IMG/VR virus record: IMGVR_UViG_3300042402_003259
Span: 18,640-82,639 of that record
Strand: one strand, 5' to 3'
DNA length: 64,000 nucleotides
Source of the DNA: a virus
Shown here: positions 1 to 19,306 of the stretch, piece by piece
Position numbering within the stretch: position 1 is the stretch's first letter
How the letters are laid out: every line of letters begins with the position of its first letter
Notes under the pieces: model-generated
Told to the model about the DNA's origin: nothing
The model's input: only the letters and a program-made list of their open reading frames with translations
Database searches by the model: none
Made by a program: the position numbers and the translations under genes

Positions 1-184
1 TTAGCTTGCCTCGGCGTTGGGTTGTCTCTTGACTAGAAGGTTTCGACTTTTATTAATGTGAGTTTGAAACCTACAAATATCTGACTTCTCACTACCGCAC
101 TAGTGCTGCTTTTCATCAAGAAACGAGCCGTTCACCGAATTTACACCATACTCATACACAATTTCTCATGTATGGACCCTTAAG
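1..184 (-). ncRNA. Group I intron (IC3/Azoarcus-like), 5' part only, in a probable tRNA-Leu
   Basis: Minus strand: P1 hairpin GGACU^CUUAAGGGUCC with U.G wobble at the splice site; P element AAAUUCGGUGAA (131-142); Q element CAACGCCGAGG (9-19); truncated by window start. Confidence 0.85.
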
Positions 185-217
185 AGTCCGCTATGTCTGC
201 CATTTCATCATCGCGCC
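185..217 (-). tRNA. 5' exon (to U33) of intron-containing tRNA, probably tRNA-Leu
   Basis: GGCGCGA-TG-ATG-AAATGGCAGA-CAT-A-GCGGA-CT; D-arm of Leu (type II) style; anticodon lies outside the window. Confidence 0.75.
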
Positions 218-237
218 AAAATTTAAAGAACACGCAC

Positions 238-266
238 AATCTACTAGAGATTGCGGCCCCTGTCAA
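238..266 (-). promoter_or_regulatory. sigma70-like promoter for tRNA unit
   Basis: TTGACA-17 nt-TAGATT on minus strand. Confidence 0.7.
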
Positions 267-277
267 GGGGAAAAATT

Positions 278-352
278 TGGCAGTCCATAAGAGAATCGAA
301 CTCTTGTTAATAGGTTGAAAACCTACTGTCCTAACCACTAGACGAATGGACC
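278..352 (-). tRNA. trnE: tRNA-Glu(UUC)
   Basis: Cloverleaf, anticodon arm GTAGG-TT-TTC-AA-CCTAT, TTCGA T-loop, encoded CCA. Confidence 0.93.
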
Positions 353-356
353 GTTT

Positions 357-432
357 TGGTAGTCCCGGTGGGATTTTCGCCCACAGTCAATCCCTTATAA
401 AGAGAACGCTTTTGATGTTAAGCTACGGGACC
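357..432 (-). tRNA. trnI: tRNA-Ile(UAU), atypical D and T loops
   Basis: Acceptor GGTCCCG/CGGGACT, anticodon loop TT-TAT-AA, encoded CCA; D-loop lacks GG, T-loop GCGAAAA. Confidence 0.75.
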
Positions 433-456
433 ACTAAAAATACGCAATAGCCTCTG

Positions 457-529
457 TGGGCCGTGCTGGACTTGAACCAGCAACCGACGAATTATGAGTT
501 CGCTGCACAAACCATTATGCTAACGGCCC
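457..529 (-). tRNA. tRNA(CAU), probably Ile2 (lysidine type)
   Basis: GCGAA-CT-CAT-AA-TTCGT; T-arm GCTGGTTCAAGTCCAGC as in bacterial Ile2; no encoded CCA. Confidence 0.8.
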
Positions 530-564
530 ATAGAAACTACTACATATTAAATTTTAAAGAACGA

Positions 565-634
565 AAAGAGTAAAGTATAATTCCAATTATGTTTCAGAAT
601 ATATTACCGAATGACAAACATATTCTTACTCTTT
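565..634. ncRNA. Putative small structured RNA in tRNA array
   Basis: AAAGAGTAA/TTACTCTTT closing stem with two internal hairpins; tRNA-sized but not a cloverleaf. Confidence 0.35.
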
Positions 635-646
635 ACTCAAATTAAA

Positions 647-717
647 TAAGCAGCGGGAAACGTATTTCCATCTATCATAAATAACACACATTATAATGAT
701 AGTGACTTCACTGCTTA
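647..717. ncRNA. Putative three-way-junction RNA in tRNA array
   Basis: TAAGCAG/CTGCTTA closing stem, GGAAA-4nt-TTTCC hairpin, CTATCAT/ATGATAG stem; follows the same leader motif as the tRNAs. Confidence 0.45.
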
Positions 718-740
718 AAATTTAAAAGAACTGAAAAAAA

Positions 741-1325
741 TGGTGCAATCGGCGGGGAACGATCCCGCGACTCACAGATTAAACCTACCACTATAGTTTT
801 CACTACCAGTAGAATGTTGTTACATAATTGATTGAATACTAATTACCAATTACTAAACTTCATTGGATACAGATTTCTCCCTACTACTGTTTGTGGTCTG
901 GACTATGCCTTTATCATAATTAGCTGTCAGGGGTTCCTCTCTTGCGAGTTTAGCTTACCCGACGATTCTCATGCCTTTACCGTGCTAATTTTAGATAGGT
1001 GATTATAGTCTCTACACGTTTTTTATTATGAGGCTATAGAATTTATCACAATTAAGTGGCTAGACGGGTAGCCTAGCAATCATGGTAGGTCACTATTGCG
1101 CCTATTTACCCACAATCCTTTCTTCTATTATTTCTCTAGCGTTTGCCTAAAACTTCGCTCGGCGTTGGGGGCATATATTTACATATTGCAGATTCTTTTG
1201 AAATCTGTCATTGCTACCCGTTCACCGAATTTACACCTTACTCATGCACAGTTTCCTATACATGGACCCTTGTTATCTTGCGATAACATCAAGTCTGTTG
1301 CTCTACCAACTGAGCTACGATTGCA
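741..1325 (-). tRNA. trnK: tRNA-Lys(UUU) split by group I intron (exons 1292-1325 and 741-783)
   Basis: Joined exons give TGCAATCGTAGCTCAGTTGGTAGAGCA-ACAGA-CT^TTT-AA-TCTGT-GAGTCGCGGGATCGTTCCCCGCCGATTGCA-CCA. Confidence 0.92.
784..1291 (-). ncRNA. Group I self-splicing intron, 508 nt, no ORF
   Basis: P AAAUUCGGUGAA (1221-1232), Q CAACGCCGAGC (1157-1167), R GUGUAGAGACU (1007-1017), S AAGGCAUAGUCC (900-911), P3 AGGUG/CACCU, IGS GGUC pairing exon GACU, terminal G at 784. Confidence 0.92.
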
Positions 1326-1342
1326 TTTTAAAGAACTTCAAC

Positions 1343-1371
1343 ATCCTACTTTAGTATGTTGCCTTTGTCAA
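1343..1371 (-). promoter_or_regulatory. sigma70-like promoter upstream of tRNA-Lys
   Basis: TTGACA-17-TAGGAT, followed by GTTCTTTAAA boxA-like motif. Confidence 0.65.
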
Positions 1372-1380
1372 GGGGAAACT

Positions 1381-1453
1381 TAGCGGGTATCGGATTCGAA
1401 CCGATGATCTTCACGTTATGAGCGTGACGAGATGACCTCTTCTCCAACCCGCA
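1381..1453 (-). tRNA. tRNA-Met(CAU), initiator-like
   Basis: U1:U72 mismatch and fMet-like D arm and variable loop; anticodon arm TCACG-CT-CAT-AA-CGTGA; no encoded CCA. Confidence 0.85.
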
Positions 1454-1509
1454 AAATTTAAAGAACGCGATCAATTTACCATACTTTCACTGATTGTCAA
1501 GGGGGAAAT

Positions 1510-1584
1510 TGGAGCCTCGCCAGAGACTTCAACTCTGCTCTGAGGTTTACAAAACCCCTGCATCGGCATCTATGCTTGCGAGGC
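1510..1584 (-). tRNA. trnT: tRNA-Thr(UGU)
   Basis: GGGGT-TT-TGT-AA-ACCTC anticodon arm, acceptor GCCTCGC/GCGAGGC, encoded CCA. Confidence 0.85.
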
Positions 1585-1602
1585 ACACTTAAATATTATA
1601 CA

Positions 1603-2532
1603 CTATTTCTTCACACCTTCTAATACTTTACATCCATTTGCAGTAATATATCTAACATTATCAATACTAATAAACCCTTTACGAATAAGATACAATTCAA
1701 AATCCCTTTGAATCGCGGTTCTTGACAAACCAGTTTTTGCAGCGAGCATAGAAAGAGTACAGTTACCTTCTTTACGCAAAATATTTAGTATCTGCCACTC
1801 AATTCTATTCAAACCGTAAGGAAGAATATCAAGAATATAAAACAACTTCTCAGCATCTTCTTTGGTAAATCGCGTGATCTCAAATCGATCAGCATAAAGC
1901 TTGACTTCTTTGGCGCGAAGCACACAAGAACGTGCATTGCCTCGGGAAGTTTCAGATAACATTGATAGAGCTTCTTCATCAAACTCAATATTTGGTAGAG
2001 CTTTTTGAAAGATTTGCCTCAATTCATTTGTATTGTAATCTGCAAATTCAATCGTCGTCAATCGATCACGCAACGGAATAAATAGCTTATCTGATTCAGT
2101 TGTCGCGAATATAAAATGATGCTTCTTGAAATTGAAGATATAATTTGCTTTGCCAGCATTATAATCAATTACATGATCTTTCTCTGTAGAGAGAATAGAT
2201 AGCAATGCGTAAGTAAAGTCTCTTGGCAGACAATGAGCTTCATCAAAGAAACAAATAATTTCTTGATCTTGAATGTGGGGCAGAAAAACTTGTTCGAAAA
2301 ACTGATTCCCCGATTTAATACTAGAGCTATTTAGCTCAAGCAGTGGCTTATTGACTCCGGTGGTGTTATAAATGTTCTTGGCAAATTCGCGAACAAATGC
2401 AGTCTTGCCTAGACCTTTTGCGCCAACGAAATTCAAAAACGGTACAAGTTCAGTCTTAGCATGAGCTTCCAAATAAAATGAAAGCTTGCGTTTGACTTCT
2501 TCTTGACCAACAAGTTCAGCGAAGTAGTTCAT
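1603..2532 (-). CDS. ruvB: Holliday junction branch-migration ATPase RuvB-like
   Basis: VGQEEVK start, Walker A GAKGLGKT, Walker B FFDEAH, ATT..PLRDR, C-terminal winged helix (ELYLIRKGFI). Confidence 0.85.
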   Translation of the reverse strand: MNYFAELVGQEEVKRKLSFYLEAHAKTELVPFLNFVGAKGLGKTAFVREFAKNIYNTTGVNKPLLELNSSSIKSGNQFFEQVFLPHIQDQEIICFFDEAHCLPRDFTYALLSILSTEKDHVIDYNAGKANYIFNFKKHHFIFATTESDKLFIPLRDRLTTIEFADYNTNELRQIFQKALPNIEFDEEALSMLSETSRGNARSCVLRAKEVKLYADRFEITRFTKEDAEKLFYILDILPYGLNRIEWQILNILRKEGNCTLSMLAAKTGLSRTAIQRDFELYLIRKGFISIDNVRYITANGCKVLEGVKK

Positions 2533-2783
2533 TACTGGGTGATAGTGAACTCTGCAACAGGCTCCTCGTCAAGCTGATTCTGAATCTCTTGAGGAAGTGA
2601 ATCGCCATCTTGCGCTGAAGCTACAGGCACGTTCTGGTACTTATTGTACCAAACGCGACCAACAACAACAGTGGCGTTCGCATCGTTGTTAAGCTTCGCG
2701 AGAAGCTCGCCCAACGTGATTTCAACAGTGGAGGTCGCTCCCTTGGGACGACCACGACCAATCTTGGGTGATGGATTTTCCAT
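2532..2783 (-). CDS. Small AT-hook DNA-binding protein
   Basis: GRGRPKG motif; start corrected to ATG 2783, 8 nt after a TAAAGT -10 box with TTGACA at 2814-2819. Confidence 0.65.
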   Translation of the reverse strand: MENPSPKIGRGRPKGATSTVEITLGELLAKLNNDANATVVVGRVWYNKYQNVPVASAQDGDSLPQEIQNQLDEEPVAEFTITQ

Positions 2784-2862
2784 ACGCGACCACTTTATCA
2801 GGTTTTTAGGTGCTGTCAAGGGGCTTCGCAAGATTTTTTGAGAAAAATGAGAGGGTGGGGAC

Positions 2863-2958
2863 GAAAAAAGACCCGATATCAAACACAAGCTTGATGCGCT
2901 TCGGGTCTTACTGTTTTTTAATCAATAGATCAAAGTTTGAACAGTTTATATTTGCGCT
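2863..2958 (-). ncRNA. Putative ~95 nt small RNA ending in a terminator-like hairpin
   Basis: GTGTAA motif at 2967-2972, no ORF, AAGACCCGA/TCGGGTCTT stem followed by U-run. Confidence 0.4.
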
Positions 2959-2975
2959 ACTATATATTACACTAT

Positions 2976-3140
2976 TTATTCTTCTTCACGACAATTATCT
3001 TCTTCATCGTCTGAAAAATTATTATCTATTTCATCAGCATAATCTTCATAGCAGAACACGCAAACAAATTTCTTACCAACTTTTTGGTAATCGTCATTCT
3101 CAGTGTCGATAAATTCGCTACAGTATAAACATTTTTTCAT
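2976..3140 (-). CDS. 54 aa CxxC..CxxC zinc-finger protein with acidic tail
   Basis: Read from sequence: MKKCLYCSEF..FVCVFCYEDY..; below ORF-track cutoff. Confidence 0.6.
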   Translation of the reverse strand: MKKCLYCSEFIDTENDDYQKVGKKFVCVFCYEDYADEIDNNFSDDEEDNCREEE

Positions 3141-3192
3141 ACTTATATTCTAATTGTACATATCATAACAGAAAATGTGAAAAAATAAAATA

Positions 3193-3453
3193 TTATTCTT
3201 CACTATTTTCATCGTATAGATCTGTATACATATCAAAAATAATTACTTTGTCCTCGCATTGTTCTAAATAACCTTCGTCACTTAAAAATTTAATTACATG
3301 ATTGCGACAGGAATCATCTTGAGAATCGCACTCAAATGGATGCTTTAACGTCATTAGTTTTTTATTAAAACAAATGATATTATGATTACGAAACTGTAAT
3401 TTAAAAAGGGGATCGAAGTTTTCTTCGTCCCCTATTAGTTCTTTAAGATTCAT
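3193..3453 (-). CDS. Hypothetical protein
   Basis: ORF in operon, ATGA overlap with upstream gene. Confidence 0.6.
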   Translation of the reverse strand: MNLKELIGDEENFDPLFKLQFRNHNIICFNKKLMTLKHPFECDSQDDSCRNHVIKFLSDEGYLEQCEDKVIIFDMYTDLYDENSEE

Positions 3454-3716
3454 TTCTTTATAAATCTATTATACACAAGTTTACCTAAATTGGCGGCAAA
3501 CTTTCTAGCTTTCTTTTCAGGCAGTTCAAAAAGATGTGCATGAAAGACTTCTTCGATCAATACATTAAGTTGGCGGCGAGTCAATAATGTTGGATCAATT
3601 AAAATTTGAGGATCATCAGTATCAGGAGAATCACACAAACCAGAAGCGTGAAATCTTGTAGGCGGTTTATTATAATTAACTGTGTATTCTACACCCTCAA
3701 AATTCTTGAATTTCAT
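3450..3716 (-). CDS. Zincin-like small protein
   Basis: LNVLIEEVFHAH resembles HExxH metallopeptidase helix (first His replaced). Confidence 0.5.
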   Translation of the reverse strand: MKFKNFEGVEYTVNYNKPPTRFHASGLCDSPDTDDPQILIDPTLLTRRQLNVLIEEVFHAHLFELPEKKARKFAANLGKLVYNRFIKK

Positions 3717-3719
3717 AAT

Positions 3720-4091
3720 TTAATTTTTAGGCCATCCACCTGCCCAATAATTATCTCCATAATGTATGAAGATTTCTTCGCCAGCATTGATCTTTCTTGA
3801 AGCATGAATGTAAATACCCTTTTTAGAAGTTGACCAATGAGCGTTATTATTATCGCTATGATTGTATAAAGATATATAACCTAACGCAATAACATAGTTG
3901 TTTTCCCCTTGAGGAAATGAAAAAACTATCTTTCTCAAATCTTCAGGAGTTTCTTTCCATTGACTTTTCCAACAACTACTAAATGGAGAATGTTCTATAA
4001 TTACTTGAGGAGCTATGTCTATCTTGGTGAATACGCCAAGACCTAGTGGAGTATCTTTAATTTCTAAAAAAGAAGAAATAAAATAATTCAT
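3720..4091 (-). CDS. SET-domain protein-lysine methyltransferase
   Basis: GLGVF, YNHSDNNN, I..GEEIFIHYG motifs. Confidence 0.88.
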   Translation of the reverse strand: MNYFISSFLEIKDTPLGLGVFTKIDIAPQVIIEHSPFSSCWKSQWKETPEDLRKIVFSFPQGENNYVIALGYISLYNHSDNNNAHWSTSKKGIYIHASRKINAGEEIFIHYGDNYWAGGWPKN

Positions 4092-4333
4092 TTTAAAAAT
4101 TCTTTTAACTTTTTCTGATTCTCTGCGTTTAATATTATAAAGTCAGACCAAGGTTTTCCATATCTCAGTATCTGCCAACACCATCTTAATCTCTCTGACC
4201 AACCTAGCGTTCTACCACTCAATCCTCTTTCAAATAAACTTAAGCATACTTCTTCATCATCGAACTTCTCAACAAGAAGCCCATGACTATAACAATCGCA
4301 AATAAGAAACTCAGAGTCTTTTTCTTCTTTCAC
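4088..4333 (-). CDS. Hypothetical protein
   Basis: Operonic ORF. Confidence 0.6.
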   Translation of the reverse strand: MKEEKDSEFLICDCYSHGLLVEKFDDEEVCLSLFERGLSGRTLGWSERLRWCWQILRYGKPWSDFIILNAENQKKLKEFLK

Positions 4334-4941
4334 TTTATCATTAAAAAATTATGTACTCGCCAGACTCTACTAGATAAAAAGCACAAAGCTTTGTATACTT
4401 TATCGCAAATAAATTTAAGAATCTTATTGTATGGATTCAAGAAATACTTATATCGACGAGTTTTTCTAAATTCGTCCCATTCTCGTAATTTATTATGGAA
4501 TTCTATGTCTTTTTTTTTGCGTTCGCCATTTGCGGTGGCTTCGAAAGTAGTTAATTTAATATCTTTTATTTTACCGTCAATAAATACAGCATCATATACA
4601 ATCCAGTAATCATAATCAGTTTTATTCGAACTAAAAAAATCATAAAATTGTACTGTGCAAGTTTTATTTACAGATTCAAGCCATGTCTTTTTAGTTTTTA
4701 TATGTCCTACTTTATCTAAAAAGCCTTTGGCATTTGGATCTCCTTCTACCCATTCTGTTTCGCGGCGTTCAATAAATAATTGACCGTTCTCGTCGATGAT
4801 ATAAATATCTAACGCGCAATCAAAATCTTTAGTTTGAAAGCCGTGCGAGCCAGTATAACCTTTTGGTTCATCTGGCATTGGCAAAAAACATTTGCATTCT
4901 ATACTGTCATACATTCCCATCTTAATTGCCTCCTTTATCAA
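4330..4941 (-). CDS. Conserved phage hypothetical (MGMYD..FQTKD family)
   Basis: MGMYDSIEC, FQTKDFDCAL motifs; true start probably at the MGMYD Met. Confidence 0.65.
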   Translation of the reverse strand: MIKEAIKMGMYDSIECKCFLPMPDEPKGYTGSHGFQTKDFDCALDIYIIDENGQLFIERRETEWVEGDPNAKGFLDKVGHIKTKKTWLESVNKTCTVQFYDFFSSNKTDYDYWIVYDAVFIDGKIKDIKLTTFEATANGERKKKDIEFHNKLREWDEFRKTRRYKYFLNPYNKILKFICDKVYKALCFLSSRVWRVHNFLMIK

Positions 4942-5158
4942 CTTTATAATCCATTATGTCCTCAAAGAATTTGCGAAATGCTAAATAGTCTTGATGATCT
5001 GCGTCATTCATGCCTTTAACATCTACACGATTTAAATAATCGCAAATAACGCCATCATAATAAGATGGAATAATAATATTCTTTCCATCGTATTTTAGAT
5101 CATCGCTTTGAATAACAATCTTCTCGTTAGGATTCTTCATGTATAAATCTTTCTTCAT
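4922..5158 (-). CDS. Hypothetical protein
   Basis: Operonic ORF. Confidence 0.55.
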   Translation of the reverse strand: MKKDLYMKNPNEKIVIQSDDLKYDGKNIIIPSYYDGVICDYLNRVDVKGMNDADHQDYLAFRKFFEDIMDYKVDKGGN

Positions 5159-5195
5159 TACGGTTATGATATTCTAGCCTCAGATATAGTCAAGG

Positions 5196-5588
5196 TTAAT
5201 TTGACAATTTTTCAATATTACCCTCACTATCTGAATAAAAAACTTCTTCGACATTGTAAGACTTAAGCAAACTCAAACAACCGGGACACGGTTTACTGTT
5301 TGCCAATCGTCCTTTTCTATCAACTCTAAGTACGATCATAGAATGATCGTTAAGATCTTCAAGACCTGATTTTAAAATGACATCTAATTCAGCATGAGTG
5401 CCAACATATCCATCGTGATATGGATGTTTAGATATTTCAGGGTGAGTTCTTTTTCTATTCCAACCAATTTTTACTATCTTGTTCTTTTTAACAAGAAAAG
5501 CTACATGAGAATTATTAACATTCTTCCAATTAGTAGGGCATAGAGCGTGAGCAGTTTCAACTGCTCTCTTTAATATTCGCGGCTTCAT
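5196..5588 (-). CDS. Cytidine/deoxycytidylate deaminase-superfamily protein
   Basis: THAE and KPCPGC zinc-binding motifs. Confidence 0.8.
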   Translation of the reverse strand: MKPRILKRAVETAHALCPTNWKNVNNSHVAFLVKKNKIVKIGWNRKRTHPEISKHPYHDGYVGTHAELDVILKSGLEDLNDHSMIVLRVDRKGRLANSKPCPGCLSLLKSYNVEEVFYSDSEGNIEKLSN

Positions 5589-5882
5589 TCATCGCCAAGT
5601 ACGATGCGCTTCAGCAATATATTCGCCAGAAGTATCGGACATTATTTTCCAACCTATATCATTAGGTATTTCAATAATCTTTAAAGTAGTATATAAACCA
5701 TTAGCCTTTTTGCCAAGCTTTTCTACAGCTTCCACAAGTAAAGGATTACATCTATCATTATCAAAAGCATAAGCATTTATTTCTGACTTAGCTTTTACGC
5801 TCTTTATATTTTTTTGAATATACAGTATAGCATCGCGACTTATAGCAAAATTACTATGAGAAGTATTAATTACGACTTGCAT
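5589..5882 (-). CDS. Conserved phage hypothetical
   Basis: R..PLLVEAVEKLGKKANG..LKIIEIP..EYIAEAHRTW pattern common in phages. Confidence 0.65.
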   Translation of the reverse strand: MQVVINTSHSNFAISRDAILYIQKNIKSVKAKSEINAYAFDNDRCNPLLVEAVEKLGKKANGLYTTLKIIEIPNDIGWKIMSDTSGEYIAEAHRTWR

Positions 5883-6186
5883 ACATTGATATCAGTTTTT
5901 CGAGTTCATCACAGACAGTTTTGATATCCGCAGTTATCTGTGCTGGAACAATTCCAGCTTCAGTCATAGTGCGTTCATCTTTTCCCGTGCGCCAATCGTT
6001 GAATGCGCGAAGGCGTTCTATAGCTTTTTCAATCATGATTTGTAGATACGGTAATGACGTTGACAGTTATACCTGCTTTGCCGTCATATTTAGCACCATA
6101 ATGACGCTTAGATTCCAGAAAGTCAAGGAGATCTTTTTGAATTTTTTCAGCGTCTTCACGACTAAAACCTTTTGGAAGATTTAAAG

Positions 6187-18361: not shown

Positions 18362-19306
18362 TCAATTAGGAAAACGCTTAATGAAATGAACAAAAGCTTT
18401 ATCTTTGCCTTTGACTTCGATCTCCCAAGTAACATCCAATCCCATATCAGGAGGAGGAACAGTGAGATTCTTGGCGTGATTACGCTTTGTATCTTTCTCT
18501 GCTTCAGACCAATGAAAAACAGGGGGAACATCCCAAGTTTGAAAAAACTTCATAAAGTTTTTCTCGAAAGGAATAATCGTACCATCAGCGATAATACTAG
18601 GATTTGCCGTATCGTGCAAGTTATCATAAGTCAAAGGAAAATGGAAACTATAAACCTGCCTCATGTAATTATGAAAATAATCATGAAGATTAAGACAGTT
18701 CCAAAATCCTTTGTCTTCGTTTTCGACGACTAGGCGATTGCGAACACCAATATCACACCGAAAGAAATTACGCACAAACTTGTCTACGAATTTCTGGGCA
18801 GATTCAAAGTTAGACAAACTAGGATGAATATTGATCGGGCATAGATGCGATTGCGGCATCTTCATTTGATCAAGCACCCAAGCATGAAAATTAAGTTCAG
18901 CAATAGATTTGTTGCAAATGTCATCTGAATCAGACCCGAGAACTACAAACTGATCAGGATGAATTGACATAGAAATATTAAGTTCGCGAGCAACGCGACC
19001 AATTTCCATCAACTTTTGTTCCAAAATATTCCAATACGGAAGCAAGTCTACTTGGATTTTTAGAGTAGGATCAGTAACAAGCGGAAACAGCTTGCATGAC
19101 AAACGGTAATGCTTGATGCCAACCTCTTTGCAGTGTTTAAGTGTTTCAATGGTTACGGTCAAGTTATGGGAAATGCGTCGAGACAATTCTTGAATTGATT
19201 CATCGCGACTTTTCTTCAAGAACTGAGTCCGAGTCATGGTCTTGAAGGCCAGATCAGGATTTTTATCGCGCAAAAGTTCTGAAATACAAACGAGTCCTAA
19301 TTTCAT
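18362..19306 (-). CDS. uvsE: UV-damage endonuclease (UVDE)
   Basis: LGLVCIS, YRLS..LFP, SIHPDQFVVL, VENED, FHWSE, EIEVKGKD. Confidence 0.92.
   Translation of the reverse strand: MKLGLVCISELLRDKNPDLAFKTMTRTQFLKKSRDESIQELSRRISHNLTVTIETLKHCKEVGIKHYRLSCKLFPLVTDPTLKIQVDLLPYWNILEQKLMEIGRVARELNISMSIHPDQFVVLGSDSDDICNKSIAELNFHAWVLDQMKMPQSHLCPINIHPSLSNFESAQKFVDKFVRNFFRCDIGVRNRLVVENEDKGFWNCLNLHDYFHNYMRQVYSFHFPLTYDNLHDTANPSIIADGTIIPFEKNFMKFFQTWDVPPVFHWSEAEKDTKRNHAKNLTVPPPDMGLDVTWEIEVKGKDKAFVHFIKRFPN

Follow-up and report, generated by a model that had tools for sequence, protein, structure and literature searches.

A 64,000-nt stretch of viral DNA (IMG/VR record IMGVR_UViG_3300042402_003259, positions 18,640 to 82,639; hereafter, the window) begins with what a first-pass annotation had taken for the 5' part of a probable tRNA-Leu gene, interrupted after U33 by a group I intron related to one in a neighboring tRNA. 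This raises the question of whether a tRNA gene of this phage is split by such a ribozyme and how introns of one lineage came to occupy different tRNAs. The presence of a group I intron in a tRNA-Leu gene of a freshwater phage (window 217..1, minus strand) was confirmed, as indicated by the exon, the elements from P1 to the 5' strand of P6, the match to a covariance model (R1), and an orthologous gene for tRNA-Leu(UAA) in another IMG/VR locus (L022). It is highly probable that this stretch represents the 5' part of an interrupted phage tRNA-Leu(UAA), in which a 33-nt exon is followed by a group I intron that is located between U33 and U34, lacks an ORF, is IC3-like and is predicted to splice; of its approximately 383 nt, the first 184 are present.

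The 5' exon and its upstream region

The 5' exon comprises the first 33 nt of a long-arm (Leu-type) type II tRNA (217..185, minus strand; GGCGCGAUGAUGAAAUGGCAGACAUAGCGGACU). An acceptor strand of 7 bp and a D stem of 3 bp, the latter with the long D loop typical of type II tRNAs, precede the anticodon-stem strand GCGGA, after which the exon closes with C32 and U33. No match to the exact 33-mer was found in IMG/VR or the JGI metagenomes. Since the orthologs at the same place of the array (in L022, L023/L025 and L008/L018, all IMG/VR loci) are tRNA-Leu(UAA), the split tRNA is almost certainly Leu(UAA), with its anticodon lying outside the window. ARAGORN called the genes in L022, L023 and L025 as tRNA-Lys(CUU) with an intron after position 37. 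This call was rejected because the intron would then follow an A and also end in A, and because a long variable arm is present; when parsed with U33 and a terminal G, the same genes yield Leu(UAA).

The promoter-like site upstream of the gene (Table 1) is regarded as a lead only, since six such sites were seen in the region and 4.9 were expected from the consensus scan. Comparable sites precede tRNA-Lys (1371..1343) and tRNA-Met (1500..1473). The leader motif GTTCTTTWAAW, in turn, occurs six times in the window compared to 1.07 expected copies, and five of the six lie inside the tRNA array that holds the Leu gene. Megablast of window positions 1-6000 against GenBank phages gave no match, and every match of the phage DNA polymerase was below 30% identity, indicating a phage without a close cultured relative.

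Table 1. Features of the split tRNA-Leu gene, its upstream region and the neighboring tRNA-Lys gene (window coordinates).
Feature	Position	Strand	Basis
Promoter-like site TTGACA, 17 nt, TAGATT, upstream of tRNA-Leu gene	238..266	-	consensus scan, 10/12 matches
Leader motif GTTCTTTAAAT, directly upstream of tRNA-Leu 5' end	221..231	-	motif count
5' exon, tRNA positions 1-33, ends in U33	185..217	-	sequence; Leu(UAA) from orthologs
First 184 nt of group I intron of about 383 nt	1..184	-	R1 match, L022 identity, DNA contig X2 record 12
P1: exon GGACU (189..185) with guide GGGUCC (179..174), loop UUAA (183..180)	174..189	-	fold
P2: 8-bp hairpin, GAAA loop	154..173	-	fold; 24-sequence alignment
P3 5' strand UGGUG; partner beyond window	144..148	-	R1 alignment
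P4 5' strand UCGGUG within conserved AAAUUCGGUGAA block; pairs with 16..11	133..138	-	R1 alignment; P4 pairs
P5 extension, peripheral insert of about 104 nt in P5 loop	22..127	-	R1 alignment
P5 3' strand (21..20), J5/4 and P4 3' strand (16..11), inside CCCAACGCCGAG	11..21	-	R1 alignment; P4/P5 covariation
P6 5' strand GGC (10..8) and start of P6 loop	1..10	-	R1 alignment
tRNA-Lys(UUU) gene with 508-nt ORF-less intron	741..1324	-	ARAGORN with introns allowed; R1 matches

Anatomy of the intron inside the window

The intron starts with CUUAAGGGUCC (184..174, minus strand) directly after U33 and runs off the start of the window. The part that is present includes P1, P2, the 5' strand of P3, P4, P5 with its 104-nt insert, the 3' strand of P4 and the 5' strand of P6. 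The clean P1 following an exon end GCGGACU, as described in the first-pass annotation, was recovered: G189-C174, G188-C175, A187-U176, C186-G177 and C184-G179 pair, and U185-G178 forms the wobble at the 5' splice site. Folding of 191..150, which covers P1 and P2, gave -13.4 kcal/mol (z = -3.42), a value that was equaled by one of 200 shuffles. Compared to the intron in tRNA-Lys, one P2 pair is changed from A-U to G-C. For P6, the 3' partner reads ...AGAAGCU both in L022 and in a DNA contig (X2) that continues beyond the window, which indicates that the usual C-G pair is swapped to G-C. The P5 insert is nearly identical in L022 and differs from that of the Lys intron; the folds of these inserts (z = -0.75 in Leu, -0.61 in Lys) do not surpass those of shuffled sequences, and we claim no structure for them.

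The R1 model was built from 24 compact relatives, none of them from the window. In a search of 736 kb, it matched window positions 189..1 with 36.6 bits (E = 2e-6; model positions 1-91 of 202, flagged as 3'-truncated), a score that is partly given by construction, since the relatives had been fetched with two motifs from the window. In the alignment of these relatives, the 45 pairs of P2 to P9, including the P7 pseudoknot, were 95.6% paired, compared to 31-45% when the partners were slid. Twenty-six pairs change on both sides, among them one P7 pair (A-U in 18 sequences, U-A in 6), and none of 500 shuffles reached the observed values. All six counted pairs of P2 change on both sides, and all five pairs of P3 covary, with 95% of cells paired.

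Default tools did not detect the locus: ARAGORN called no tRNA at the Leu locus, and Rfam gave no match on window 1-217 at the gathering score and none on the Leu fragment in E-value mode. The independent Rfam group I model (RF00028) did align one compact relative (L023) end to end (31.8 bits, E = 1.9e-6; the gathering score is 50), but at the gathering score it gave no match anywhere in the window or in the 16 related loci that were searched. The cut-off in Williams (2020) was lower, at about 18-20 bits, and that paper notes that the Rfam seeds include no bacterial sequence. The longest ORF in the Leu fragment and its L022 equivalent is antisense and 50 aa long, and no homing endonuclease ORF was found in either. 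The intron would be IC3-like by kinship only, through a 3' motif and core blocks that recur in introns of the classical Leu 34/35 site; Williams (2020) assigns all four classical tRNA introns to IC3.

The 3' part of the gene beyond the window

A DNA contig from a lake (X2 record 12) covers window positions 1-722 without mismatch and continues for a further 165 nt. This extension is composed of 33 new letters, 27 nt resembling P7/P3' of the Lys intron (1016..990), 75 new letters and 30 nt resembling its P7' (918..889), and it contains R-like and S-like core stretches. An RNA contig (X15 record 5) supplies the intron end, ...CUGGUAGUGAAAACUAUAGUGGUAGG with the terminal G (the Leu intron ends ...GUGGUAGG in this contig). 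Taken together, the pieces from the window, X2 and X15 total 383 nt, P7, P3' and P8 of this copy being known only via the run contig that resembles stretches of the Lys intron. A complete intron of 417 nt is present in L022, at the same place and in the same order of tRNAs, and 178 of the 184 nt (97%) are identical to the Leu fragment. It ends in G, and its removal in silico leaves an 87-nt tRNA-Leu(UAA). Of the elements that had been expected next to the window, R-like and S-like stretches and a terminal G were seen in contigs running beyond it, and a matching 3' tRNA half in the near-identical L022 copy; this outcome does not refute the first-pass annotation. The 3' exon of the window's gene would start UAAAAUCCGC; we infer this exon, the anticodon and the splicing activity of the copy in the window.

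On this basis, the most likely course of events can be proposed. The tRNA-Leu gene would be transcribed from its own promoter-like site, and the intron would fold so that the exon end GGACU pairs with the guide GGGUCC and U33 takes part in a U-G wobble. Free guanosine would attack after U33, and the freed exon end would then attack after the terminal G of the intron, so that U33 is joined to the UAA anticodon and a normal tRNA-Leu results. The excised intron may persist and could circularize by an attack of its terminal G after intron base 2, the predicted circularization point, where the dinucleotide CU of intron bases 1-2 repeats the exon end.

Intron RNA in lakes

Contigs of three lake metatranscriptome runs cover window positions 1-181 and 881-1281, which correspond to the interiors of both introns. 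In two studies, position 1281, which is 10 nt into the Lys intron, marks the end of the RNA contigs, although a DNA contig continues there; this is a weak hint. One RNA contig (depth 5.2) joins the last G of the Leu intron to its own base 3, as would be expected of a truncated group I circle. This junction comes from a single Logan contig in one of the three RNA runs, its shorter side is 27 letters long, and repeats or other organisms can mimic such joints. In the contigs of the three runs, no ligated-exon junction was seen for either tRNA and neither exons nor spacers were covered, where missing contig cover proves nothing. Likewise, a DNA run contained no circle-like joint, which is no proof of absence.

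A sister intron in tRNA-Lys

The second intron lies 570 nt from the Leu intron. On the minus strand, the tRNA-Lys gene consists of a 5' exon (1324..1292), the intron (1291..784) and a 3' exon including CCA (783..741), and splicing in silico yields a 76-nt tRNA-Lys(UUU). R1 matched the intron with 69.2 and 46.9 bits. RF00028 in E-value mode gave 13.2 bits (E = 2.9), which is below the gathering score, and the longest ORF, again antisense, has 65 aa. Anticodon nucleases cut tRNA-Lys at 33/34; a link between these enzymes and the intron site was dropped as speculation.

When the 184-nt Leu fragment and the initial 150 nt of the Lys intron were aligned globally, 99 of 118 aligned columns were identical. 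Both the block CCCAACGCCGAG and the segment reaching from AAGGGUCC to GAACGG are free of gaps, whereas the P1 loop (UUAA in Leu, a 20-nt hairpin in Lys) and the P5 insert (104 versus 45 nt) differ, in agreement with the common blocks and differing extensions noted at first sight. The core of the Lys intron is 98% identical to that of a Leu intron in another phage locus (L021). The two introns of the window are accordingly not recent copies of each other, each being closest to introns of other phages. The idea of one lineage in different tRNAs held at the level of the family, as described below, and not as a recent duplication within this array.

A family of introns at several tRNA-like sites

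We obtained 194 ARAGORN intron calls, 103 of which contained at least two core motifs; 91 of these could be parsed under a rule that demanded that the intron follow a U and end in G, and the remainder were not counted. In a core tree, from which one partial row standing for three identical rows (L093, L117, L123) was dropped, a clade with 100/100 support comprised 22 rows: eight Leu, eight CAU and two Lys introns at 33/34, one in tmRNA and three at other sites. Members of this subfamily are inserted after U33 in phage tRNA-Leu(UAA), tRNA-Lys(UUU) and tRNA(CAU), and in the T-loop of phage tmRNA.

Among syntenic arrays, the Leu intron is present in the window, L022, L023/L025 and L008/L018 and absent from L020, and the Lys intron occurs in the window and L022 only. 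L020 is the closest relative (94% identical over a neighboring gene). Its tRNA-Leu(UAA) is uninterrupted and reads GACU/UAAAA at the site; such an empty site is what a mobile intron leaves behind. Relatives, all of them unannotated, were found in one cultured jumbo phage and in IMG/VR, where the number of contigs is well above one hundred.

Is the Leu copy functional and genuine?

The Leu intron might have decayed, with splicing lost and the tRNA-Leu gene dead. Its 3' half is known indirectly, no ligated-exon read was found, the Rfam scores are below threshold, and splicing is a prediction. However, all visible core blocks are intact, compensatory changes relative to the relatives are present in P2 and P6, the L022 copy with 97% identity gives a regular tRNA as its spliced product, and the RNA junction is consistent with circularization by the ribozyme. 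We therefore regard decay as very unlikely. Even less credible, to the point of being negligible, is an artefact, in which the assembly would be chimeric or a tRNA fragment would happen to adjoin some unrelated non-coding RNA. The feature is cut at the window edge, but 14 DNA runs from lakes and fresh water hold at least 94% of the sampled words of window 1-3000, one DNA contig spans the region and runs on, and the same architecture recurs across independent IMG/VR contigs. An interrupted tRNA-Leu gene with an intron that is predicted to splice thus remains the preferred reading.

Routes of spread between tRNAs

Two routes may have brought the introns into different tRNAs. We see roughly even chances for spread and maintenance at the DNA level, with allelic gain and loss by homologous recombination between co-infecting phages, gene conversion of paralogous introns, occasional help from nucleases encoded elsewhere (HNH genes of related introns, or free-standing genes), and switches of site as rare repair accidents. 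Peripheral modules speak for such exchanges: in P6, the Lys intron has a 155-nt module that is identical (155/155) in the Leu intron of L021 and almost so (154/155) in the Met(CAU) intron of L020, although the flanks differ, and its P5 insert has an 89% match in the Leu intron of L010. The presence and absence of introns vary among the syntenic arrays, and one DNA run contains strain variants in which the Lys intron is devoid of its P9 hairpin of 77-81 nt. ORFs of 153-172 aa with an HNH-like motif, assigned by reading the translations, are present in seven of the examined classical Leu introns of 650-754 nt (L037, L040, L056, L067, L083, L084 and L101), and were seen only in such longer introns of that site. 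On the other hand, neither intron of the window contains or adjoins a nuclease gene, and allelic recombination alone leaves unexplained how a different tRNA species was reached, given that the old and new sites have only 4 nt in common.

The first-pass annotation had favored reverse splicing, in which the excised ORF-less intron would enter any tRNA-like loop with (G/A)ACU and then be copied into DNA, which would explain the Leu, Lys, CAU and tmRNA sites. Several findings are in line with this route: no examined intron of the subfamily contains an ORF longer than 65 aa; each site follows a U able to wobble-pair with the guide, and the Leu and Lys targets of the window share GACU; the guide GGGUC is retained even where the target is AACU (L012, L013, L020); at least seven kinds of site are occupied within the 100/100 clade; and excised intron RNA, possibly circular, is found in nature. 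On the other hand, a reverse transcriptase or cDNA step is not in evidence, and no signature sets an RNA route apart from the DNA-level routes. Other tRNAs ending in GACU33, for which the first-pass annotation had proposed a check, can be without an intron: tRNA-Leu(UAA) of L020 is uninterrupted, and so is tRNA-Gln(UUG) of the window, with AGACU at positions 29-33. One origin for each type of tRNA remained compatible with the AU tests (p = 0.088 for Leu, 0.339 for Lys and 0.072 for CAU), so the core tree alone is no proof of repeated jumps. The lack of ORFs and the shared (G/A)ACU target would fit reverse splicing, but DNA-level explanations fit too, and we consider reverse splicing possible and rather unlikely. 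Still more doubtful is a broader scenario: a mainly phage-borne, ORF-less IC3 lineage that would colonize (G/A)ACU-ended tRNA-like loops by reverse splicing (the Leu, Lys and CAU anticodon loops, an anticodon stem and the tmRNA T-loop), swap peripheral modules and have seeded the tRNA(CAU) intron of Opitutaceae hosts, its excised, partly circular RNA persisting during lake infections.

Related introns in Verrucomicrobiota

A chromosomal tRNA(CAU) intron of Opitutaceae belongs to the same subfamily and clade as the introns of the window. An identical 20-mer, GGUGUAAAUUCGGUGAACGG, was found in 34 genome contigs, with the 3' flank (G followed by CAUAAUCC) in 29 of the 34; some of the intron-bearing Verrucomicrobiota contigs are 3.8 to 6.5 Mb long. 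GTTCTTT lies upstream of the intron-bearing tRNA(CAU) in 29 of the 34 genome loci, nearly all of them from Verrucomicrobiota. In a second tree, which left out L162, L171 and L172 because their 3' end was outside the fetched stretch, 29 host rows clustered among the phage rows with a support of 80/65. Like those of the window, the introns of Opitutaceae and other Verrucomicrobiota follow U33 and carry the guide GGGUC and the 20-mer; they differ in their host, a bacterial CAU tRNA (Met or Ile2), in their length of 210-284 nt and in being devoid of large P5/P6 inserts. Their site class is that of the cyanobacterial 'fMet.2Ug' intron (Williams 2020). Opitutaceae are the likely host group of the phage, the shared intron and the shared GTTCTTT leader providing a host lead for an uncultured phage.

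Comparison with known introns

The classical Leu(UAA) intron resembles the Leu intron of the window in its host tRNA, its insertion into the anticodon loop, its core blocks and the 3' end motif GGUAGUGAAAACUAUAGUGGUA, and is usually ORF-less and about 200-300 nt long. As had been pointed out, it is inserted one base later, between U34 and A35 (CUU/AAAA, or 'Leu.3Ug'; Williams 2020). Phage copies at the classical site, to which the comparison applies, have the guide UUGAG instead of GGGUCC and fall into the other of the two 100/100 clades; they are the commonest class, with 69 of 127 motif matches in the loci examined. The cultured Agrobacterium jumbo phage Atu_ph07 (MF403008) likewise carries a tRNA-Leu(UAA) split by a group I intron of 278 nt. 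R1 matched this intron with 112 bits, and the gene was called by ARAGORN with introns allowed; the record annotates only 'hypothetical protein'. It differs in occupying the classical 34/35 site and in having the core type of the other clade. The Azoarcus tRNA-Ile(CAU) intron ('Ile2.5Ug', IC3) is also a small ORF-less bacterial tRNA intron. Its core blocks presumably resemble those of the window intron, which may serve as a lead. Its site is later in the loop (position class 5; Williams 2020).

Our literature search returned no paper describing phage tRNA genes with group I introns; bacterial Leu or Lys introns after U33 may be listed in Williams (2020), whose Table 1 and supplements were outside the coverage of this search. 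According to a 2014 review, every phage group I intron known at that time interrupted a protein-coding gene, although phages have many tRNA genes (PMC3984707). For the Lak megaphages of the gut, Devoto et al. (2019, PMC6784885) described 'enigmatic' tRNA introns, of which none had been reported earlier to the authors' knowledge. These also lie in phage tRNA genes, but were not classified as group I.

Implications

As a ribozyme, the Leu intron is ordinary and IC3-like; its setting is under-reported. In a single lake phage, two tRNAs are split by such introns, which have many unannotated relatives, indicating that these introns are common yet unannotated in phage tRNA genes. Default tRNA finders missed both the Leu and the Lys gene of this window; since intron-split genes escape them, phage tRNA repertoires, and the codon-usage arguments built on them, are undercounted. 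The compact natural variants with other guides could interest engineers who use the Anabaena tRNA-Leu intron to produce circular RNA. Finally, since genomes carry more than one paralog, close relatives differ in whether a site is filled or empty, the target spans 4-5 nt and the Opitutaceae hosts have cultured members, the family may make the mobility of ORF-less group I introns by reverse splicing testable.

The window edge carries the 5' part of a group I intron in a probable tRNA-Leu(UAA)

Every gene at this end of the window is carried on the minus strand. The 33-nt exon of the tRNA-Leu fragment (see the table) begins with an acceptor strand, followed by a 3-bp D stem whose loop is long, as in type II tRNAs, and by the anticodon-stem strand GCGGA, C32 and U33. 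No anticodon follows U33; the sequence continues with CUUAAGGGUCC and runs to window base 1 without a tRNA 3' half. This tRNA was not called by default ARAGORN, which gives six tRNAs in the window, and Rfam at the gathering score returned no intron in the window and one additional tRNA. When 191..150 was folded, two hairpins were obtained (z = -3.42), with only one of 200 shuffles being equally good.

A covariance model (R1) was made from 24 compact relatives, with the window sequences excluded. R1 matched window 189..1 over model positions 1-91 of 202, with the 3' end flagged as cut off. The score was 36.6 bits (E = 2e-6, 736 kb searched), but the relatives had been fetched by two window-derived motifs, and at those positions the score arises partly by construction. 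Across the 64-kb window, R1 matched only this fragment and the intron of the neighboring tRNA-Lys(UUU). The first-pass annotation proposed a group I intron after U33 of a tRNA, probably Leu, and this observation is confirmed by the exon sequence, the P1/P2 fold and the R1 match. The window contains the 5' portion of a genuine group I intron without an ORF, located in a tRNA-Leu(UAA) gene of the phage. We predict that this intron is most likely active.

Coordinates of intron and tRNA-array features (window positions unless loci are named)
Feature	Position	Strand	Details
5' exon of tRNA-Leu	217..185	-	GGCGCGAUGAUGAAAUGGCAGACAUAGCGGACU
P1	in 191..150	-	exon GGACU with GGGUCC, U185-G178 wobble, loop UUAA
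P2	in 191..150	-	8 bp, GAAA loop; fold and R1 alignment
P3 5' strand	148..144	-	UGGUG; R1 alignment
P4	138..133 with 16..11	-	R1 alignment
P5	129..128 with 21..20	-	insert of 104 nt; R1 alignment
P6 5' strand	10..8	-	R1 alignment
tRNA with anticodon UAU	360-432	-	found by Rfam, not ARAGORN
Stretch between tRNA-Lys and tRNA-Met	540-731	-	about 180 nt without ORF or tRNA
P9 hairpin of Lys intron	808-886	-	77-81 nt
P6 extension module of Lys intron	1006-1160	-	155 nt
tRNA-Thr(UGU)-like gene	1509-1584	-	T loop UUGAAGU; missed by ARAGORN and Rfam
Introns with HNH-like ORF	L037, L040, L056, L067, L083, L084, L101		about 650-754 nt

The helices of the family were evaluated in the 24-sequence alignment using 45 pairs in P2, P3, P4, P5, P6, P7 (pseudoknot), P8 and P9. 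Paired cells amounted to 95.6%, compared with 31-45% when partners were slid by 1-3 columns, changes on both sides were seen in 26 of the 45 pairs, and none of 500 shuffles reached the observed values. The register of P8 is tentative, because P8 as written pairs in only 64% of cells. Over its full length, the compact relative L023 aligned to the independent Rfam group I model with 31.8 bits (E = 1.9e-6), short of the model's gathering score of 50. That model gave 13.2 bits (E = 2.9) for the Lys intron and no match for the Leu fragment. Williams 2020 used a cut-off of about 18-20 bits and pointed out that bacterial sequences are absent from the Rfam seeds.

Other features were observed in the tRNA array. 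The tRNA-Thr(UGU)-like gene has an odd T loop and is homologous to the ARAGORN-called tRNA-Thr of L023. In the stretch between tRNA-Lys and tRNA-Met, which follows a GTTCTTTTAAA leader (731..721), AAGCAG and CUGCUU close a hairpin; the stretch is a possible small RNA gene.

Recovery of the intron beyond the window edge

The 33-mer of the Leu exon is absent from IMG/VR and from JGI metagenomes. The IMG/VR locus L022 carries an intron at the same position of the same array that is identical to the Leu fragment at 178 of 184 positions. This intron is 417 nt long in total and includes P6', GUAGAGACUAUAAUCACC (P7/P3'), P8, GGCAUAGUCC (P7') and P9. It ends with ...GUGGUAAG, the next exon begins with UAAAAUCCGC..., and in silico splicing yields an 87-nt tRNA-Leu(UAA).

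In 14 lake or freshwater DNA runs, at least 94% of the words sampled from window 1-3000 were present. A contig from one of these (X2) matches window 1-722 without mismatch and extends 165 nt past the window edge, comprising, in order, 33 new letters, 27 nt resembling P7/P3' of the Lys intron, 75 new letters and 30 nt resembling its P7'. The remaining intron end, ...AGAAAU CUGGUAGUGAAAACUAUAGUGGUAGG, was found on an RNA contig (X15 record 5). Joining the pieces gives a length of 184 + 165 + 2 + 6 + 26 = 383 nt. R- and S-like stretches follow the fragment in the X2 contig, and L022 supplies the matching 3' tRNA half; the outcome that would have spoken against the first-pass annotation, adjacent sequence with neither, was not observed. 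From these sequences we infer UAA as the anticodon of the window copy.

Intron RNA in lake metatranscriptomes

Six lake metatranscriptome runs contained 18-27% of the words sampled from window 1-3000. Contigs of three of these runs and of one DNA run were aligned to window 1-1700. The RNA contigs, mostly free of mismatches, cover 1-181 and 881-1281, the interiors of both introns; a ligated-exon joint was not seen in these three RNA runs. In two studies the RNA contigs end at 1281, 10 nt into the Lys intron, and show no loose end at that point, whereas the DNA contig continues. The tool grades this stop as a weak hint.

One RNA contig of 123 nt (depth 5.2) joins the 3' end of the Leu intron to window 182/181, although the shorter piece of the joint has 27 letters, a kind of joint flagged with a tool warning. 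In the RNA sense it reads ...GUGGUAGG-U-AAGGGUCC..., which means that intron base 3 is attached to the terminal G. The two lost bases, CU, are a copy of the last two exon bases and are able to pair with the same guide Gs. Circularization sites of group I introns are selected by guide pairing of bases that resemble the exon end. The junction, seen in one contig from one of the three RNA runs, is consistent with that expected of a truncated intron circle.

The intron lineage occupies several tRNA species

The 20-mer GGUGUAAAUUCGGUGAACGG was found in 26 IMG/VR stretches and the 3' motif GGUAGUGAAAACUAUAGUGGUA in more than 119. R1 matches in the fetched loci numbered 91 in one half and 88 in the other. 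ARAGORN made 194 intron calls, 103 of which contained at least two core motifs, and 91 of these 103 could be parsed with U before the intron and G at its end. In 127 matches of the 3' motif, with counts biased by locus retrieval, the terminal G was followed by AAAAU (classical Leu, after U34) in 69 cases, CAUAA and CAAAA in 9 each, UCUAA in 7, UAAAA (Leu after U33) in 6 and UUUAA in 1. One 10-kb phage contig contains four separate R1 matches (L082, 1176-5738, minus strand), indicating that multi-intron tRNA arrays are not unique to the window.

Maximum-likelihood analysis of 131 core columns in 73 rows, with one partial row omitted, gave two clades (support 100/100). The larger one comprises 51 rows, and in 41 of these the intron occupies the classical Leu 34/35 site. 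The smaller clade (22 rows) contains introns after U33 of Leu(UAA) (8), CAU (8) and Lys(UUU) (2) tRNAs, and one each at a phage tmRNA T-loop, Leu 34/35 (L004), UUU 34/35 (L015) and the site of L019. Both window introns fall within it. The proposal that one intron lineage resides in different tRNAs is therefore borne out, as this clade spans Leu, Lys and CAU tRNAs as well as tmRNA. The Leu fragment is 100% identical to L022 over 49 tree columns, and the L021 Leu intron matches the core of the Lys intron at 98% identity; the two window introns are not recent duplicates of one another. Since AU tests did not reject trees in which each tRNA type was held together (p = 0.088, 0.339, 0.072), the number of jumps is not countable from the core tree.

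In L019 (about 4381-4604, minus strand), a 196-nt intron interrupts a phage tRNA-Leu(UAA) in its anticodon stem, between positions 27 and 28. The P1 of this intron is formed by GCAU with GUGC, and in silico splicing gives an 89-nt tRNA-Leu(UAA). Such a site would escape pipelines limited to the anticodon loop. In L003 (10239-10813, plus strand), an intron belonging to this subfamily (R1, 173 bits) interrupts the T-loop of a tmRNA gene (Rfam, 78 bits). Intron-split phage tmRNA also occurs in L005, L006, L007, L011, L014, L016 and L017, and the upstream 100 nt are identical in all eight. Group I introns in T-loops of bacterial tmRNA are known (Williams 2020).

Mosaic introns and routes of spread

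Related contigs keep the tRNA order Thr, Met, Lys, Met, Ile(UAU), Glu, Leu(UAA). The Leu intron is carried by the window, L022, L023/L025 and L008/L018, whereas the tRNA-Leu(UAA) of L020 is uninterrupted, with a neighboring clamp-loader gene 94% identical to that of the window. Among the compared contigs, only the window and L022 carry the Lys intron; in L020 it is a tRNA-Met(CAU) that carries an intron instead. Compared with the P6 module of the Lys intron, the modules of the L021 tRNA-Leu and L020 tRNA-Met introns agree at 155/155 and 154/155 positions, and those of L002 and L008/L018 at 81-86%. Folding of the module gives a multi-helix domain with compensatory change in 8 of 41 pairs (four sequences). 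The module matches no Rfam family and looks like a structured element moving between introns. In contigs of a lake DNA run and an RNA run, 2-6 letters stand in place of the Lys intron's P9 hairpin, a presence/absence polymorphism within the population. Together, the mosaic peripheral parts and the filled and empty sites show recent DNA-level exchange between introns of different tRNAs.

The first-pass annotation had favored reverse splicing as the route of spread. This is a possible source of rare site switches: the targets have (G/A)ACU in common 5' of the splice site, the guide GGGUC is retained on AACU targets as well, and no ORF longer than 65 aa was found in the introns of the 22-row clade examined, all of which is compatible with it. 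However, among the eight uninterrupted window tRNAs read, tRNA-Gln(UUG) has GACU33 and yet is intron-free. We rank DNA-level recombination, with or without outside nucleases, above reverse splicing, as it is better documented. ORFs of 153-172 aa on either strand, with an HNH-like motif read by eye from translations, were observed in seven phage-contig introns at the classical tRNA-Leu 34/35 site; judging from this motif, they likely encode homing endonucleases.

A host lead

The GGUGUAAAUUCGGUGAACGG 20-mer was also found in 34 contigs of a species-representative genome set. By title, 32 belong to Verrucomicrobiota, 26 of these with Opitutae- or Opitutaceae-type names; the remaining two are titled Sediminibacterium and Saccharibacteria. 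In 29 of the 34, an intron lies after U33 of a tRNA(CAU), with the flank G|CAUAAUCC. These introns, from the genome contigs L146-L178 (mostly Opitutaceae), are of the subfamily of the window introns, and since some of the contigs are 3.8-6.5 Mb long, the gene is chromosomal. In a tree with these rows, the host introns cluster (80/65) among phage rows, a grouping that sets no direction of transfer. In 29 of the 34 genome loci, GTTCTTT is found no more than 130 nt upstream, and GTTCTTTWAAW is found six times in the window (1.07 expected), five of them directly upstream of tRNA-array genes. The intron common to phage and Opitutaceae, together with the upstream GTTCTTT, provides a lead to Opitutaceae/Verrucomicrobiota as host. 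The phage encodes RIIA, a clamp loader, a DnaE-like polymerase and a ribonucleotide reductase; protein comparison found no close cultured relative.

Relation to known tRNA introns

Williams 2020 described 21 tRNA/site classes in bacteria, 17 of them new; the four classical classes, Leu.3Ug, Arg.5Ug, fMet.2Ug and Ile2.5Ug, are all IC3. Insertion after U33 is thus already known for fMet (fMet.2Ug). A 2014 review (PMC3984707) stated that the phage introns seen until then were all in protein-coding genes, and Devoto et al. 2019 (PMC6784885) presented the unclassified tRNA introns of Lak megaphages as the first to be reported from phage tRNAs. Group I introns in phage tRNAs were not described in any paper found by full-text literature searches. 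The sole tRNA case found in GenBank phages is the cultured jumbo phage Agrobacterium phage Atu_ph07 (MF403008; L144, 645-1006, plus strand), in which a tRNA-Leu(UAA) is split at the classical site by a 278-nt group I intron; the annotation at this locus has only a 117-nt 'hypothetical protein' CDS, leaving the intron unannotated. The window intron is a known kind of element in a setting barely recorded in the searchable literature.
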